From a virus, in the IMG/VR virus record IMGVR_UViG_3300045988_110668: 63,351 nt of DNA; one strand, written 5' to 3'. The notes under the pieces are model-generated. The model was not told the DNA's origin. It searched no databases and saw nothing but the letters and a program-made list of their open reading frames with translations. This document shows positions 38,647 to 44,687 of this stretch, piece by piece. Made by a program: the position numbers and the translations under genes. Numbering within the stretch: position 1 is the stretch's first letter; each line of letters opens with the position of its first letter.

Positions 38647-39981
38647 TTAATACACGTTATTATTAAACACATAATCAATAACTTTGGAATTAGCCTCATT
38701 TATAGAACTAAAATCCTTCTTGATATAAATTTCAGTTACCCTCATGGATTCGTCAACATGATTTAAGGCGGAATGGACTACATACTTGTCTATTTTAAGA
38801 TCATTAGCCGCAATAGTAGCCCATGAATGGCGGGCAGCATAAAATTCCAAATCTTCTATGATGTCACCGTTCTTTTTTGACTTATTTATATCGTTAATGC
38901 TCTTCTCAATCTCCTTAAGGCCCTTATTGATAGCTTTATTAAAGTTCTTATAATCGGCATACATTTGATAGAATCTGAACACTCTTTTCCCTGTATGATC
39001 TTTGTATTTCTCCAGCAGATCGGAAATAAACGGGGGTACATCTACATGAATTTCCGCGTTATCTCTACGTCTAGTTCTTGTTTTCTCTCTGAAATACTGA
39101 ATCGTATTATTGCTTATCTTATCACAGCTATATAAGTCAGCAGAATTCATTCCTATCAGACAGAAAGACAAGATAAATACATCTTTTGCAAGATTATATC
39201 TGCAATTTTGCTCTACATTTTTCCTGGCGTTATGCCGCATTATGTAGGGTAAATCATAAATTGCTTTTATTGTTTGCGGTGATAATGCCCTTTTTCTTGT
39301 AGTCTCTTCTTTGGGAACCTTAAACTTCATGAATGGAGACCAAGGTATTAGTATTACTCCTTTCTCTTCATCGTTATATTTTAATTTAGCCTCCTTATGC
39401 AAATGCCGAATACATGCGGTATAGTTAGATAACATTCTATTGGTTGTGATACGCTTCCCTTTTTTTATAGCTTCTAAATTGGATTTCTCCTTTTTTTCTA
39501 TCAGAAACTTCGAATAATTAACCAGCATTGAATAGGTTATTTCAGAAATAGATATAATATCTCTTTTCATAAAGTTGATTAATGACTGAAGCATGCCTTT
39601 GTAATTAGAAGCAGTTCCATTTTTACCTTGTTTTTCAAGATTGTTTATATAGTCCTTTGCAAAAGATACAAAATCAATATCTTTCTTTTTGTCTTCTTCC
39701 TTTTGGTTCAAATAATCGACCAATTCATCTATTGACATATTATCTATAGTAAGAGCGATCTTGCTACATTTATTACGATAATAATTGATAATCTCATTGC
39801 ACTGATCTATCTTTTCCTGATTTTTTATCTTGAAATTCTTGACCGTCAAATCTTCTTGGTTTACATATATAGAGGTTGGCAACCTTCGAACAACCCTGTT
39901 ATGAGTTATCCGAATTTTTACATTCCAGGTCTTATCTTTTCTTTTTTGGTGCTTTTGCACTTCTGCTTTAAATGTAGCCAT
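38647..39981 (-). CDS. int: Tyrosine integrase (Bacteroidetes phage/CTn type)
   Basis: Start at MATFKAEVQKHQKRKDKTWNVKIRITHNR. C-terminal ARHSWATIAAN...HSALNH...TEIYI. Confidence 0.85.
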   Translation of the reverse strand: MATFKAEVQKHQKRKDKTWNVKIRITHNRVVRRLPTSIYVNQEDLTVKNFKIKNQEKIDQCNEIINYYRNKCSKIALTIDNMSIDELVDYLNQKEEDKKKDIDFVSFAKDYINNLEKQGKNGTASNYKGMLQSLINFMKRDIISISEITYSMLVNYSKFLIEKKEKSNLEAIKKGKRITTNRMLSNYTACIRHLHKEAKLKYNDEEKGVILIPWSPFMKFKVPKEETTRKRALSPQTIKAIYDLPYIMRHNARKNVEQNCRYNLAKDVFILSFCLIGMNSADLYSCDKISNNTIQYFREKTRTRRRDNAEIHVDVPPFISDLLEKYKDHTGKRVFRFYQMYADYKNFNKAINKGLKEIEKSINDINKSKKNGDIIEDLEFYAARHSWATIAANDLKIDKYVVHSALNHVDESMRVTEIYIKKDFSSINEANSKVIDYVFNNNVY

Positions 39982-40015
39982 AATTTCATATGTATTTTTT
40001 ATGCTTTTCTTTTTC

Positions 40016-40033
40016 GAGCAACAATAGAGCAAC
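40016..40033 (+). repeat. 18-bp direct repeat GAGCAACAATAGAGCAAC (putative integrase arm site, copy 1)
   Basis: Identical to 40282-40299. Confidence 0.85.
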
Positions 40034-40170
40034 AATTTCAAGCAAAAGTAGCGTTTTAAATCAAAAGTAACAAAATAAAAGGGCTATAAATCATTTTAGA
40101 CTTATAACCCTATTTATTTATAATCATCTGAAAATCAACACAAACAACTAATAATCAGACCTTATTTTTG

Positions 40171-40220
40171 TGGAGCGGTAAGCGAGACTCGAACTCGTGA
40201 CCCTTAGCTTGGGAAGCTAA
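40171..40220 (-). other. 3' half of a tRNA-Gly(CCC)-like gene: putative attP core
   Basis: Minus strand: TTAGC-TTCCCAA-GCTAA (anticodon arm, CCC), GGGTC, T-arm ACGAG-TTCGAGT-CTCGC, TTACCGC-T-CCA. There is no 5' half upstream. Confidence 0.65.
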
Positions 40221-40281
40221 CCAATAAAACAATATAATAATATGTACAACAAATACTTACAACAACACATTACAACAAAAA

Positions 40282-40299
40282 GAGCAACAATAGAGCAAC
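40282..40299 (+). repeat. 18-bp direct repeat (putative arm site, copy 2)
   Basis: Identical to 40016-40033. Confidence 0.85.
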
Positions 40300-40396
40300 T
40301 TTATCCAAATTAGAAACTTTCCTCTTTTTATTCAGGTAAATATAAGAAATATTTTATAGAATAGAAACAAAGTCGGATATAATCAAAAAAGGCAGC

Positions 40397-40648
40397 TCAT
40401 TCGGCTGCTTTTCCTATCTTCTCCTTAAACAATCTCAACTGATCTATACTAGGATGAAAAGTAGGATTCTCCCAGTTCCTAGAGATAACCGAAATCATTG
40501 AATCCAGAAACTTCCCGCAGTCGAGAATCTTCGCACATTTATCCAATTGGAACTCTCCGGAAGGATATTTCTTGCTGTCAAGAACATCCTTAGCCCATGT
40601 CAGTAACTCATTCACCGAGTCGTGGTTGTATTTATTTTCCTCCGCCAT
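40397..40648 (-). CDS. Hypothetical protein (83 aa)
   Basis: Start moved to MAEENKYNHDS because a TACCTTTG -7 box lies inside the longer track ORF. Confidence 0.5.
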   Translation of the reverse strand: MAEENKYNHDSVNELLTWAKDVLDSKKYPSGEFQLDKCAKILDCGKFLDSMISVISRNWENPTFHPSIDQLRLFKEKIGKAAE

Positions 40649-40786
40649 AATAACTTTGTTTTCGGCAAAGGTATAAAAAATCCCGGCATATCTAATACAC
40701 CGGGAGGATTCCATTTTAAAGAGGCAGTTATAAATGGAAGGAGCTATTCACCAAACATATAATCCTCAAAGTACAAGAGATTCCTT

Positions 40787-41233
40787 TTATTGAGGATCAT
40801 GTACGCCATATATTTTGGCTGGGAGAGTAAAAGAAGGGAGTCCTGTGCGGACAATCATATTTTGAATATACTCTCTAAAATAAGGCCAGATAAATACTGA
40901 TAAACTTATCTCTTTAAAAACATCAAAGAAATCTTTTGTTATTGTGACCTCTTTTAATTTACTATATCTGACTTTAAACTCTCCAGATATAGTAAATAGT
41001 TTCTCCGCATTTTCTTGCTCGCCAATTATACCTTCAAGCTTAAAGGAAGCTATAAAACAAGCATTACTTTCAGATTCAGAAAACGAGTATTTATCTTTAA
41101 AATTTAAATTGATAGAGCCTCCTTCTGATACACACTCAAACACCTTAACATTTCCATCCGAAAGAAATATATTATCTAATTTTATGGAAGTTAATATTGA
41201 AGAATATTCTTCTGGGGTAATTTTATTTTTCAT
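40787..41233 (-). CDS. SecB-like chaperone
   Basis: C-terminal IWPYFREYIQNMIVRTGLPSFTLP parallels E. coli SecB [26 protein letters not shown]. Confidence 0.7.
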   Translation of the reverse strand: MKNKITPEEYSSILTSIKLDNIFLSDGNVKVFECVSEGGSINLNFKDKYSFSESESNACFIASFKLEGIIGEQENAEKLFTISGEFKVRYSKLKEVTITKDFFDVFKEISLSVFIWPYFREYIQNMIVRTGLPSFTLPAKIYGVHDPQ

Positions 41234-41235
41234 AT

Positions 41236-41784
41236 TTATATAACTGATTTAAATTCGGTATGTTCATAAAAACGAGATTGAGTAGCATTACAAAACAAGG
41301 TATTTGTTTTGTAATTAATTGAATTAAGGTTCCTTAAAATCATATCATTTTGGGCAGTAATCTTTTCATCAATCTCATCTATTTTTCTTTCACATTTCAA
41401 TGAAACATCATGTTGTCCAATTCCGTATGCTAATAATTGATTAACATAAGAATTGAGGGAAACACCATTCATTTTAGCTTGTTGTATCAACGAAGAATGA
41501 ACCCATGAGGATGTTCTAACTGAAAATGTACCACTTGAATTTTGCTCCTCATTTACAACTTCAGGGATAGGCTCTCCTTTTTCATACAACATTTCTATAA
41601 AAGCATCTTTTTCTTCAATAAAACTATTTAAAGCAGATACTTTATCTTCTCCTATCCCATGACAAGCATTTAAACCAAGCTCATTGCAGTATGCAACATA
41701 CCACTTTTCGCCATCAAGTTCTTCTTTTTTAATAATAACATTGTACTCCAATGATTTGTAGTACTGTAAATCTTTTCGTGACAT
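41236..41784 (-). CDS. hicB: HicB-family antitoxin with a ~60-aa C-terminal extension
   Basis: YNVIIKKEELDGEKWYVAYCNELGLNACHGIGEDKVSALNSF..GEPIPE, then SGTFSVRTSSWVHSSLIQQAKMNGVSLNSYVNQLL (RHH-like), then extra residues. Confidence 0.75.
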   Translation of the reverse strand: MSRKDLQYYKSLEYNVIIKKEELDGEKWYVAYCNELGLNACHGIGEDKVSALNSFIEEKDAFIEMLYEKGEPIPEVVNEEQNSSGTFSVRTSSWVHSSLIQQAKMNGVSLNSYVNQLLAYGIGQHDVSLKCERKIDEIDEKITAQNDMILRNLNSINYKTNTLFCNATQSRFYEHTEFKSVI

Positions 41785-41804
41785 AATTGTATTGGGTTAG
41801 TGAG

Positions 41805-42128
41805 TTATTGCTTTTTCTTTATCCTTATTATTTCAATTAACACTGGATAAAGATACTGTTTAAAATTAGTCCTCTTTATTAGGACTTCATTGCCACCTTT
41901 ATGGACAACGTGTACTCCAAAATATTTGCCAGGTGTTGGGGCTAAAGGGTGATAAAATCTTTCCATAGAACCACGTGGGCTATCTTGTAATTTTGATCCA
42001 AGAAATTCCGCAATCTTAACCACATGATTAAAAGGCAGATCCACCACAGGCGCACTATAAAGATTTTCTAGTTCTTTTTCCGCATCCTCAATAGTGGTAT
42101 CATTCGTTATTTTAAACTTAAATTTCAT
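41805..42128 (-). CDS. hicA: HicA-like toxin (divergent; GSM instead of GSH)
   Basis: ..PRGSMERFYHP..GVHVVHKGGNEVLIKRTNFKQYL... Position is immediately upstream of hicB. Confidence 0.55.
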   Translation of the reverse strand: MKFKFKITNDTTIEDAEKELENLYSAPVVDLPFNHVVKIAEFLGSKLQDSPRGSMERFYHPLAPTPGKYFGVHVVHKGGNEVLIKRTNFKQYLYPVLIEIIRIKKKQ

Positions 42129-42465
42129 ATAAAACCGAATTTTGGTTGCAAATATAATACCAATATTCCAATTTATAACAGAAAAAAGATAAAAAAGTTC
42201 TTTTTCTTACTCTATTTATACTTATATTCTTTTATAAATATATATAAGAATCCCCGACTACATAGCCAGGGACAAACACAAAGATATAACCCTTGCAATA
42301 ATAGCAAGAGGAATAAGCCAGTATAGCCACTTTTCTAGGCGTTCCATAGCATTACTAGCAGAAGCCGGCAGAAATCCGAGTGGTATCGGTCGTCTGCTTG
42401 TGAAATCAAATCATCTATGTAGTCTTTTTCTCTCATTTTCGCCTGTATTTCTGACAAAATGCCCC

Positions 42466-42891
42466 TTAATATCTTCGGCATAAGTTCTTCCTGCAATGTT
42501 CACACAAGAAGTTCTTCGCTATTGGAAACATCTTCTGACCTACCTCACCGGAAAGATATTGGGCTTCCTCCCCGTAAGGATCAATATTGAATACCTGTGA
42601 GATATGCCGGCACAAGTGCCCTTTTTCGTGGTCCCATGAGTTTTGAAACTCTCCCGGGGAAGAAGTGAGAGCAATTACCATCACAGTCTCACGGTCCTCA
42701 AAGTTCGAATAAGTAAGACCGGTATTGAGAACCCCGGAAGAGAGGTTTCTGTATGCCTGTTTGAAATCCTCTCCTCTACAACCGATACGGTGAAGTGCGC
42801 ATAGAATATCACTGGTCCAGTAAGTCGTTACGGCATAGTACACCTTAACTATCCAATCATATTTCGGTATGTAGAAATCTTGAACTATCAT
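42466..42891 (-). CDS. Small HExxH protein (putative zinc metallopeptidase)
   Basis: WDHEKGHLCRH motif; last gene of the 7-gene cassette. Confidence 0.5.
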   Translation of the reverse strand: MIVQDFYIPKYDWIVKVYYAVTTYWTSDILCALHRIGCRGEDFKQAYRNLSSGVLNTGLTYSNFEDRETVMVIALTSSPGEFQNSWDHEKGHLCRHISQVFNIDPYGEEAQYLSGEVGQKMFPIAKNFLCEHCRKNLCRRY

Positions 42892-42893
42892 AA

Positions 42894-43373
42894 TCAGAGC
42901 ATATCATCCCACATTATAGGTGTGCCACTTCCGATACAATCCGCATAGAAACGGGTAAAAGGAAGACCGTCATACCCGTCAGGATCATCTATGTAATCCT
43001 TCAAGAATAATGCCAAATGGGATTCATCTATAATGGAACTCTTATAATAATCAGCTTTCGCCATATTAGCTACATATACGCAATCATACCCAGCATCTTT
43101 CTCCAGTTTAATTCCGTACTTTTTCAGAAGCTCTTCTACTTCCTCCTTTTTGATCGAAACGAGTTTTTCCTTCTGCTTGGTAGCCTTGTTCTCAACTTCC
43201 ATTTTAGAAACAGCCCATTCACACATCTTCTTAGAGAAGTGCCAACCGTATAACGACAGATAATTTTTCATTGCCGGAGGCATCTTGTCATACGTATCTA
43301 GTCTTTGTCCCATAATTAATTGCTTTTTAGGATAAGAGGGGATTTCTCCCCTCATACGATTAATAGAACTCAC
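42894..43373 (-). CDS. Hypothetical protein (159 aa)
   Basis: Track ORF. Confidence 0.6.
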   Translation of the reverse strand: MSSINRMRGEIPSYPKKQLIMGQRLDTYDKMPPAMKNYLSLYGWHFSKKMCEWAVSKMEVENKATKQKEKLVSIKKEEVEELLKKYGIKLEKDAGYDCVYVANMAKADYYKSSIIDESHLALFLKDYIDDPDGYDGLPFTRFYADCIGSGTPIMWDDML

Positions 43374-43641
43374 CGTTTGAGCGTCTGCGTCTGCGCTCTC
43401 CCATATCTCCGTATATAGGGGATTCCGGGAAATAGCCTGGCATACGACGTTCGTTCATACCGTCACTATCGTAACGTCCATTCTCACGGAATCCCATTCC
43501 ACCGCCACGCATTTCACTCATGGCCTTTTCATAACCATGACGGCAACCTTCACGATAGGCTTCTTCAACCTCGTTTCTTCCTCTCATTCCGAAATCACGA
43601 TCATATCCATCGTGTTCTTCTCTTATCGTCCACATTCCCAT
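43360..43641 (-). CDS. R/G/M/E/D-rich low-complexity protein (93 aa)
   Basis: Track ORF; 14-nt overlap with the next gene. Confidence 0.55.
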   Translation of the reverse strand: MGMWTIREEHDGYDRDFGMRGRNEVEEAYREGCRHGYEKAMSEMRGGGMGFRENGRYDSDGMNERRMPGYFPESPIYGDMGERRRRRSNGEFY

Positions 43642-43643
43642 AA

Positions 43644-44201
43644 TTATTTCTTTGTTTTGGATGTTTCAATTACTCCGAGCTGTTCCATTAACTTCTGATT
43701 CTGTACAATGAGGTCAGCCATATTTCTGCTCATCTCCTGCATGTTCTTATCCATATTGGACATTTGCCCTTTCAATGCGGATATTTCCTGCTCCTGCTGT
43801 TGCTTGGCTGCAAATTCAGGGTTAAGCATGGCAAGCATCTGGTCACATACCCCAAGAAAGTTCTGATGATATTCCACGCTTTTTAGAACATCCTCACTCT
43901 TCTGTTTCATAGTAAGGACCTCGGTATTCATCTCGTCTCTTGACCCTGTAATCAGCATTCCTGTTTTAACATCATCAGCAATATTGGCATTAGCCGGTAT
44001 CTCTTGCAAATTGACATTCTGTCCGTTTATATTCACGACAAAATCAATAACCTGGACAGGCTGTGGATAAGGCATGTTGGGAACAGTCTTATATATAGTT
44101 TTTATAGGGCTTACATTAACGACCTGCCCACATTCCAAACTTGGATTTGCACCTCTGTGAAGAAGATATAACGTACTGTTTACTCGTAAGTTCTGAAACA
44201 T
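43644..44201 (-). CDS. Hypothetical protein with a Q/M-rich C-terminal coiled coil (185 aa)
   Basis: Track ORF. Confidence 0.6.
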   Translation of the reverse strand: MFQNLRVNSTLYLLHRGANPSLECGQVVNVSPIKTIYKTVPNMPYPQPVQVIDFVVNINGQNVNLQEIPANANIADDVKTGMLITGSRDEMNTEVLTMKQKSEDVLKSVEYHQNFLGVCDQMLAMLNPEFAAKQQQEQEISALKGQMSNMDKNMQEMSRNMADLIVQNQKLMEQLGVIETSKTKK

Positions 44202-44270
44202 GATTGTTTAATTTTAAAGGAGTGTGGCTATTTCCATTTTGGAAAATACCACAAAACTCCATGTTAATTA

Positions 44271-44687
44271 TTACTTGCTCCGTAAAGAAGCGGTTTCTAC
44301 TGTAGGAGCCGGAACCGTTGTCGGTCTGTATCCGCCATTAACAAGATACAATTCGTTGGTGTACTTGTTGTAATGAATCTCATAGATGCCGGTTCCAGCC
44401 AAGTTTGCAACAGTTACAGGCTCATTGTTATAAGCCATCAACGGTCTTGTGTCCCCGTTAGTCCCTATCAGTATCGGGAGTGTTGCAGTCGTACCAGCAG
44501 GGATCGCCTGACGAAGATTGACATAGAACCCTCCGACATAGTCCCTGTTGCGGAACGCATGGTTAGGAAGCTCCAAAGTCACATTTTCAGTACCGACAGT
44601 TACAGCCACCGTAGGAAGAGTATTGAAATTCGCTCTTCCTATTGACGGAAACGAGAACGGAAATCCTGTAAAAAAGTTAGGCCACAT
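44271..44687 (-). CDS. Beta-rich hypothetical protein (138 aa)
   Basis: Start at ATG 44687, preceded by AGGAGG. The longer track ORF begins with TTG. Confidence 0.55.
   Translation of the reverse strand: MWPNFFTGFPFSFPSIGRANFNTLPTVAVTVGTENVTLELPNHAFRNRDYVGGFYVNLRQAIPAGTTATLPILIGTNGDTRPLMAYNNEPVTVANLAGTGIYEIHYNKYTNELYLVNGGYRPTTVPAPTVETASLRSK

Follow-up and report, generated by a model that had tools for sequence, protein, structure and literature searches.

The 63,351-nt window analysed here, the whole of IMG/VR virus record IMGVR_UViG_3300045988_110668, carries on its minus strand, between positions 40787 and 42128, three small genes that an original prediction had read as a tripartite toxin-antitoxin-chaperone (TAC) module of HicA-, HicB- and SecB-like proteins lying beside the integrase of a Bacteroidetes-type phage. 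The genes are referred to below as geneT, geneA and geneC, for the putative toxin, antitoxin and chaperone, respectively. As predicted, the three open reading frames (ORFs) are co-directional and close-packed, with 20 nt separating geneT from geneA and 2 nt separating geneA from geneC, and the peptides originally cited from the module (RGSMERFYHP, VHKGGNEV and IWPYFREYIQNMIVRTGLPSFTLP) are all present in the translations. Co-directional genes in toxin-antitoxin-chaperone order within one transcription unit are the arrangement by which a TAC operon is recognised; here a candidate promoter lies on the 5' side and a terminator-like hairpin on the 3' side. The features of the module, in the direction of transcription, are as follows.

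42149..42156, minus strand: candidate Bacteroides-type -7 box, TATATTTG (consensus TAnnTTTG), which starts 28 nt and ends 21 nt 5' of the toxin ATG
41805-42128, minus strand: geneT, putative toxin (ORF of 107 aa)
41236-41784, minus strand: geneA, HicB-family antitoxin (ORF of 182 aa), with a putative N-terminal toxin-binding domain (residues 1-75), a ribbon-helix-helix domain (~85-124) and a C-terminal tail (125-182)
41239..41412, minus strand: the C-terminal tail of HicB (residues 125-182, 58 aa), a putative chaperone-addiction domain (ChAD) with a degron-like end
40787-41233, minus strand: geneC, SecB-like TAC chaperone (ORF of 148 aa)
40671..40705, minus strand: intrinsic-terminator-like hairpin and T-run (TCCCGGTGTATTAGATATGCCGGGA TTTTTTATAC) that closes the cassette, between the geneC stop at 40787 and the start of a DUF6965 gene at 40648

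The same order of genes recurs well outside the window. Toxin, antitoxin and chaperone follow one another in 21/21 of the IMG/VR contigs that bear geneT and are long enough to show the order, a count that leaves aside 3 further geneT-bearing contigs ending before the full module. Identical gene order is found in genomes of Prolixibacteraceae, Lentimicrobiaceae and Desulfovibrionaceae, and in other metagenomic and NCBI contigs, 2 of which again place the module at a prophage end beside an integrase. A homologous module, 35-48% identical, adjoins a type I restriction-modification system on a chromosome. Furthermore, a near-identical module, with 99% identity for the chaperone, is seen through its chaperone cluster on ~975 contigs, Bacteroides thetaiotaomicron genomes included. 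In this species the copies lie at prophage ends, followed by an integrase or by the DUF6965 gene and, beyond these, by host genes. Because the three-gene order recurs both in viral contigs and in distant genomes, the module is beyond a chance juxtaposition of small ORFs. Searches of deposited phage genomes gave no match to the locus by megablast or to the chaperone by tblastn, and the toxin was not found by tblastn among the PLSDB plasmids.

The antitoxin and the chaperone

The product of geneA scores well above the Pfam threshold for HicB (PF05534; 44.3 bits against a cutoff of 21, E-value (E) 1.7e-11, residues 78-118), as do 26/26 of its aligned relatives, bearing out the prediction of a HicB antitoxin, and the HicB-like family PHROG 497 spans residues 10-166 (E 5e-6). 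The N-terminal domain is matched weakly by HicB_lk_antitox (PF15919) in 5 of the 26 relatives, with a best E of 0.009, and a search of PDB sequences with the protein and with its own profile returned no match except a marginal one to the Arc repressor.

Some 60 extra C-terminal residues had been attributed to this HicB; the Pfam match indeed ends at residue 118, and the tail beyond the ribbon-helix-helix domain measures 58 residues. The ChADs described in the literature are C-terminal extensions of variable sequence, anchored by conserved aromatic residues that insert into pockets on the SecB-like tetramer, and those of Mycobacterium tuberculosis HigA1 and of CmdA end in VA, AA or LAA ClpXP degrons. 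At the level of sequence, the geneA tail fits this description. Across the 26 relatives it is the least conserved segment of the protein, at 1.88 bits per column against 3.3-3.4 for the two folded domains. Within it, however, Y158 never varies (26/26), an aromatic residue occupies position 178 in every relative, and the C-terminal dipeptide nearly always consists of small or aliphatic residues (AV, SA, VV, AI, AS, VA or AA). A variable tail with two aromatic anchor positions and an aliphatic end is consistent with the chaperone-addiction pattern that had been proposed for the extended HicB.

For the third gene, failure in SecB profile and structure searches had been named as a result that would refute the prediction; both kinds of search instead point to a SecB-like protein. 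Relatives of geneC match Pfam SecB (PF02556) in 20 of 22 cases (best E 2.3e-6), and two relatives that are 35% identical to it bear precomputed SecB domains. The AlphaFold2 model of geneC, with a mean predicted local distance difference test score (pLDDT) of 88.3, consists of four long strands and a long C-terminal helix, and its top Foldseek match in the PDB is Rv1957 (5mtw), the TAC chaperone of M. tuberculosis in complex with a ChAD peptide (E 6e-8, template modelling (TM) scores 0.74/0.79). The next matches are the SecB proteins of Haemophilus influenzae and Escherichia coli (1fx3/1qyn/1ozb, E 1e-6), and the PDB fold matches together span TM 0.6-0.79. In PADLOC, geneC weakly matches PD-T4-9_C (E 0.002), which is the CmdC component of the CmdTAC system.

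Remoter relatives of the SecB-like protein keep other company. Their partners are either HicB with other small upstream proteins or a helix-turn-helix (HTH) antitoxin. For instance, a Thermoanaerobaculia locus (L093:947-2224) has an HTH protein (HTH_3/HTH_26) upstream of the SecB-like gene, with a 148-aa ORF before it, and in Eisenbacteria and Acidobacteriaceae (the set L090, L092, L094) different proteins of ~105 aa precede HicB and the SecB-like gene, without a match to Pfam HicA or to the profile of geneT. This variety of partners fits the known modularity of TAC systems.

The HicB assignment, the ChAD-like tail, the SecB fold and the conserved synteny all support the predicted TAC module on a temperate Bacteroides phage beside its integrase. 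We put the probability at roughly 0.7 that the region constitutes a tripartite TAC operon, borne by such a phage as a moron and acting in a manner proposed by analogy with characterised TACs.

The putative toxin

An exhaustive HMMER search places geneT in a family of proteins of ~100-120 aa with 89 representatives (~89 clusters when grouped at 50% identity), of which a 76-member set was used for residue conservation and Pfam tallies. The family has no above-threshold match in Pfam or NCBIfam, and all relatives whose context was examined occur with a tailed HicB and a SecB-like chaperone. Several lines of evidence suggest that the family is remotely related to HicA. GeneT takes the place, just 5' of hicB, that hicA has in its own operons. 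Its AlphaFold2 model (pLDDT 90.9; helix 33-42, strands 55-59, 69-76 and 82-85, helix 86-106) contains an alpha-beta-beta-beta-alpha core (~33-106) compatible with HicA, which resembles a double-stranded RNA-binding domain, to which an N-terminal strand and helix and a fourth strand are added. The best fold match in BFVD is a phage protein annotated as HicA (E 0.014, prob 0.99, TM 0.55/0.64). Weak matches to HicA_toxin (PF07927), at E <= 1, occur in 17/76 members, with any other family confined to <=2 each, and these matches are co-linear, with protein residues 35-83 corresponding in one case to profile positions 2-42. The shorter members of the family had been expected to hold the Pfam HicA matches; this proved wrong, the matches being in other members. 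The geneT motif GSxxRFxHP resembles the GSH-containing strand of HicA, and a few members keep the GSH itself, as does a Desulfovibrionaceae relative in the toxin-antitoxin-chaperone arrangement, which reads SGSH. By gene position, fold topology and marginal similarity, geneT appears HicA-like; this falls short of demonstrated membership in the HicA family.

A number of results weigh against the reading of the region as a TAC operon with a HicA toxin. GeneT of the window has no HicA_toxin match in Pfam or NCBIfam, and the best score anywhere in its family, 20.7 bits (E 4.6e-4), does not reach the gathering score of 27. A Foldseek search of the PDB with the geneT model found no HicA (best E 0.19), and a PDB sequence search with geneT and its profiles likewise found no HicA, returning chance matches only (centrin, DNA ligase). 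When the 76-sequence profile was compared by hhalign with E. coli HicA, with a 48-sequence alignment of E. coli-type HicA, with a Bacteroides-phage HicA and with a combined alignment, Prob was < 3% every time. The substitution of GSM for the catalytic GSH, to which the original prediction had drawn attention, is present, and it is characteristic of the family: a His at +1/+2 after Gly-Ser occurs in 4/76 relatives only, and the canonical catalytic His is missing from 72/76. RNase activity of geneT is therefore not assured. Other components contribute points of the same kind. On its own, geneC reaches only 12.8 bits (E 0.11) against Pfam SecB, for which the threshold is 26, and does so through its C-terminal helix only; it is therefore classed as SecB-like, of the TAC type, and a housekeeping SecB was rejected on this score. 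The HicB tail may not be wholly disordered, unlike classical ChADs, because residues ~131-156 show a helix-like periodicity. Finally, TAnnTTTG is common in this AT-rich window, occurring 88 times against 74 +/- 8 in shuffled sequence, which is unremarkable, and TATATTTG is thus a candidate promoter box only, weak when taken alone.

The toxin results raise the question of whether geneT, still as part of a TAC, is a HicA-type RNase at all. It could represent a distinct small toxin family recruited to HicB, with another active site (G53-S54, H60, H73 and H76) and possibly another target. The proposed residues are strongly conserved (G53 in 76/76, S54 in 72/76, H60 in 68/76, H73 in 69/76 and H76 in 67/76), so that a family lacking the catalytic His in 72/76 members retains three other histidines at 88-91%. 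The absence of a Pfam HicA match for geneT itself, of any PDB HicA fold match in spite of a model of pLDDT 91, and of any hhalign similarity to two HicA subfamilies would all follow if the family were distinct, as would the extra N-terminal strand-helix and fourth strand, and partner swapping among toxin-antitoxin systems is well documented. Nevertheless, HicA_toxin is matched co-linearly by 17/76 members while no other family recurs, the viral protein closest in fold bears a HicA annotation, the motif around the Gly-Ser resembles the GSH-containing strand of HicA, GSH is kept in a few members and in the Desulfovibrionaceae module, and the gene has the position of a hicA relative to hicB. A distinct toxin family is considered unlikely. 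The HicA label is the weak part of the original prediction: gene position, a compatible topology and a marginal viral fold match speak for it, and it fails in Pfam, in the PDB, by hhalign and at the catalytic His. GeneT may have kept a HicA-like scaffold, lost the canonical catalytic His and gained the N-terminal extension together with H60/H73/H76.

Natural variants of the toxin gene are also found. In one contig (L251:2494-2840, aligned to window positions 41790-42135), a 1-nt deletion at about codon 30 frameshifts and truncates geneT in sequence otherwise ~98% identical, and the downstream HicB (182 aa) and chaperone (148 aa) are still called at full length. This copy is a possible natural toxin knock-out, and confinement of the frameshift to geneT is what would be expected if the gene were harmful when unchecked. 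Four different frameshifted geneT protein clusters (P0054-P0057) suggest that the toxin has been inactivated repeatedly, assembly error being also possible.

Cassette boundaries and the cargo hotspot

The module and the features that frame it define a cassette, with the following elements.

~40685..42248, minus strand: the whole TAC cassette (moron), comprising promoter, toxin, antitoxin, chaperone and terminator, a ~1.56-kb insertion relative to sibling phages
42250..42273, minus strand: terminator-like hairpin of the upstream operon, located at the left junction of the insertion
42894-43373: DUF7841 protein of the left hotspot flank (E 8e-32)
42466-42891: 141-aa protein without a family, which follows the DUF7841 protein in the left flank
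40397..40648, minus strand: DUF6965 gene, the conserved right hotspot flank (Pfam E 1.4e-15, residues 34-100 of the long ORF)
38647-40041, minus strand: tyrosine integrase, which marks the prophage end (Phage_int_SAM_5 4e-11, Arm-DNA-bind_5 1e-5 and a weak Phage_integrase match)

Sibling phages without the module locate its ends. In two of them (L105 and L109), whose flanks are ~99% identical to those of the window, the sequence corresponding to 44500..42241 is joined straight to that corresponding to 40684..38657. The empty site consists of one terminator hairpin followed by the DUF6965 ATG, and it is at that hairpin that the cassette is inserted in the window. The cassette brings a hairpin of its own, and the junction alignment reveals a micro-homology, GGGGATT / CGGGATT, at its two ends. 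Among 80 phage loci with the upstream DUF7841 gene, the module is present in 5, and it is absent from 46 such loci in which the downstream sequence extends to 2.6 kb or more, 98-99%-identical siblings included. With a GC content of 30.8%, the cassette is poorer in GC than any other 1564-bp segment of the 63-kb sequence (mean 37.5%, standard deviation 3%). Identity within the cassette is 93-98% even between phages and prophages that match at only ~69-85% in the flanks or have them in another arrangement. A putatively autonomous unit, with its own candidate promoter and hairpin, lies between genes that are adjacent in relatives. By these sequence comparisons the module is a discrete moron, horizontally exchanged, in a cargo hotspot, a point absent from the original prediction.

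The 337-nt non-coding stretch upstream of geneT contains two terminator-like hairpins, at 42310-42290 and 42273-42250, followed by TATATTTG, so that the candidate -7 box lies inside the cassette, 3' of the terminator hairpin of the upstream gene. The box had been placed at ~42155-42165; it exists, and its true position is 42149-42156. A scan for sigma-70 promoters gave nothing above shuffled sequence in the window, and sigma-70 is in any case irrelevant to Bacteroides. Inverted repeats near the promoter (e.g. 42226-42236/42241-42251, and TTGCAA over the -7 box) were considered as operators and rejected as AT-rich and unconvincing. At the other end of the cassette, the DUF6965 ORF as listed (40397-40714, 105 aa) reaches too far upstream, to an ATG at 40714. 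The gene really begins at 40648, because homologues are 80-88 aa in length, the Pfam match begins at residue 34, and the ATG in the empty site is directly 3' of the hairpin; the hairpin at 40705-40681 is therefore intergenic and not within the gene.

The hotspot, the interval that separates the late-operon terminator from the DUF6965 gene, is hypervariable among the loci compared (L105, L106, L109, L119, L133, L135, L140 and L157). It is empty in L105 and L109. Elsewhere it holds a canonical 63-aa HicA (Pfam 70.9 bits, E 9e-20) with a 134-aa partner (L135), a 364-aa HTH_3+P63C protein (L140), a 426-aa protein without a family (L157), or small genes including an HTH_3 gene that is weakly MqsA-like (L106 and L119). 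PADLOC and Pfam searches of the alternative cargo found only the HTH/P63C proteins, the canonical HicA and, further off, one PDC-S59 candidate. The last is a 432-aa protein encoded ~3 kb past the hotspot in a related phage (L163:9712-11010, minus strand), assigned to the PADLOC candidate defence family PDC-S59 (E 6e-71). In addition, one integrated prophage that bears the TAC has, ~3 kb upstream of it, a second pair of genes (L097:2075-2704), the first of 60 aa and weakly matching HicA_toxin, the next of 133 aa, and by sequence this prophage holds two HicA-type modules.

On the downstream side, the tyrosine integrase at 38647-40041 agrees with the prediction that the module lies beside an integrase. 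The integrase ORF, called from a TTG, is probably over-extended, since MATFKAEV, at residue 21, looks like its real start. In integrated Bacteroides prophages (L097-L100, L005/L006), the cassette lies beside different integrases, called at 242-416 aa, which are convergent with it, whereas the integrase of the window is co-directional. Neither the attP named in the original prediction nor any tRNA was found in the window. On the left side, IMG/VR has 394 confirmed sites for a relative of the DUF7841 protein, and the phage lineage is therefore very common in gut viromes.

The distribution of the cassette bears on whether it is a toxin system at all. The SecB-like protein could be a folding or assembly chaperone of the phage, the HicB-like protein a transcriptional regulator and geneT an accessory to the phage life cycle; dedicated chaperones do occur in phages, the cassette lies just past the late, structural region, and the identity of the toxin is unproven. 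However, an assembly chaperone would hardly be dispensable, and the role was rejected on this ground, the cassette being absent from the 46 related phage loci, 98-99%-identical ones among them. The module also occurs outside prophages, beside the restriction-modification system, its three genes are never separated, a SecB dedicated to a toxin-antitoxin pair is what the chaperone most resembles in structure, and in the frameshifted contig the lesion is confined to geneT, with HicB and chaperone still called at full length. A role without a toxin is accordingly regarded as highly improbable.

Known systems, mechanism and meaning

Publications of 2012-2016 introduced HicAB-SecB TACs, and defence by TACs borne on prophages followed in 2022-2024. 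The type of module is thus already known, and the present locus departs from known examples in its host clade, in its clean moron boundaries and in a toxin that fails the HicA criteria and is without the catalytic His. A full-text literature search found no paper that ties SecB-like chaperones to Bacteroides prophages, one general review aside.

The nearest described counterpart is Mmet-TAC, the HicAB and SecB^TA of Methylomonas methanica MC09, which proved to be a genuine TAC when examined in E. coli (Bordes et al. 2016, PMC5105189). It has the same succession of a hicA-type toxin gene, a hicB with a C-terminal ChAD and a SecB-like chaperone gene, and differs in being located on a gammaproteobacterial chromosome rather than on a Bacteroides phage moron, and in a ChAD of 42 aa (126 bp) rather than 58 aa. 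Translation of the published cloning primers (PMC5105189) gives a toxin N-terminus, MSAKLRI, similar to the M-x-K-[FL]-K-I of the geneT family, and a HicB that reads ...YAGYAQG before the ChAD, where the HicB of the window reads ...LAYGIGQ, and that ends in ...QYA, which recalls the aromatic-plus-Ala features of the module. These short stretches are hints that Mmet-TAC and the module of the window represent orthologous families; if the Mmet toxin belongs to the geneT family, the toxicity of the family may already have experimental support.

The chaperone of M. tuberculosis HigBA1-SecB^TA (Rv1955-1957; 5mtw) is the best structural match to geneC, at an identity of only 16-18%. Its ChAD depends on an essential Y114 and ends in a Val-Ala ClpXP degron, to which Y158 and the aliphatic C-terminus would correspond here. 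In contrast to the HicA-like toxin and ribbon-helix-helix HicB of the window, this system pairs a HigB of RelE fold with an HTH HigA, and it is a chromosomal, stress-responsive locus.

E. coli HigBAC (NT1F31), MqsRAC and CmdTAC / PD-T4-9 are prophage-borne or defence-island TACs in which the SecB-like chaperone is a sensor, titrated by a major capsid or tail protein of the infecting phage, with the result that the antitoxin is lost and the infection aborted (Vassallo 2022/2024; Mets 2024 preprint). Carriage by a prophage is shared with the module, and geneC weakly matches CmdC models. Their toxins are of the RelE-type HigB, MqsR and ADP-ribosyltransferase kinds, none is paired with HicB, and all are from Enterobacteria; moreover, their defence phenotype has been seen, whereas the module of the window is known from sequence alone. 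Membership of CmdTAC / PD-T4-9 was rejected because geneT has no ADP-ribosyltransferase match in Pfam or PADLOC.

Canonical HicAB systems (E. coli HicAB, 6hpb; the hicA in the hotspot of L135) share with the module a small toxin gene directly 5' of hicB and the family of the HicB DNA-binding domain. Canonical HicA is 58-65 aa long, has a G[SD]H motif and passes Pfam, whereas geneT is 107 aa long, fails Pfam, is without that His and has an N-terminal extension; furthermore, the canonical HicB has no 58-aa tail and no chaperone gene accompanies it.

A mechanism can be modelled on M. tuberculosis HigBAC, Mmet-HicAB-SecB, E. coli HigBAC/MqsRAC and CmdTAC. In a lysogen, all three proteins would be made, the N-terminal domain of HicB would bind and block the toxin, and its ribbon-helix-helix domain would repress, and thereby autoregulate, the operon. 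The HicB tail, with its anchors Y158 and F/Y178 and its aliphatic C-terminus, would commit the antitoxin to aggregation or proteolysis unless wrapped on the SecB-like tetramer. Upon superinfection, unfolded capsid or tail protein of the incoming phage would titrate the chaperone, HicB would be lost, probably through a ClpXP-type protease, and the released toxin, which is most likely an mRNA-cleaving RNase, would stop translation and abort the infection. By this analogy, the module probably serves to kill the host on infection by a rival phage, with prophage stabilisation through post-segregational killing as a possible secondary role.

It could also be argued that stabilisation is the principal function, and that the module is mainly an addiction device, killing cells that lose the prophage or from which it is excised, and not an anti-phage defence. 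The module adjoins the integrase at the prophage end, both in the window and in integrated copies, and post-segregational killing needs a labile antitoxin, such as the degron-like C-terminus of HicB might provide. On the other hand, 99%-identical sibling phages persist without the module, the variable cargo hotspot that it occupies is typical of defence and moron loci, the homologous chromosomal module lies beside a type I restriction-modification system, and the TACs tested so far act in abortive infection. We consider addiction as the main function to be improbable, somewhat more so than a distinct toxin family, and it is compatible with defence, the two roles not being mutually exclusive.

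The preferred reading thus remains a TAC operon carried as a moron and probably directed against rival phages. A more far-reaching version, which we put forward tentatively and for which the odds are less than even, though better than for either of the alternatives concerning toxin family and addiction, is that geneT represents an uncharacterised toxin family, with a mechanism or target unlike that of the canonical HicA mRNA interferases, which together with a SecB-like sensor forms a system of phage-versus-phage exclusion in human-gut Bacteroides.

TACs are emerging as anti-phage sensors, their SecB-like chaperone serving to detect a flood of unfolded viral structural protein. To our knowledge, mechanistic work on them has to date been confined to Proteobacteria and Mycobacterium, and the present locus would add to them an example that is widespread among prophages of gut Bacteroides. 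The three proteins, which are mostly labelled "hypothetical", gain a handle for annotation. A toxin without the catalytic His of HicA could show how the HicA scaffold tolerates the loss of an active site or re-invents one, and the defined ends of the cassette, together with naturally isogenic empty-site phages, would make it an ideal natural experiment on phage-versus-phage exclusion in the gut.

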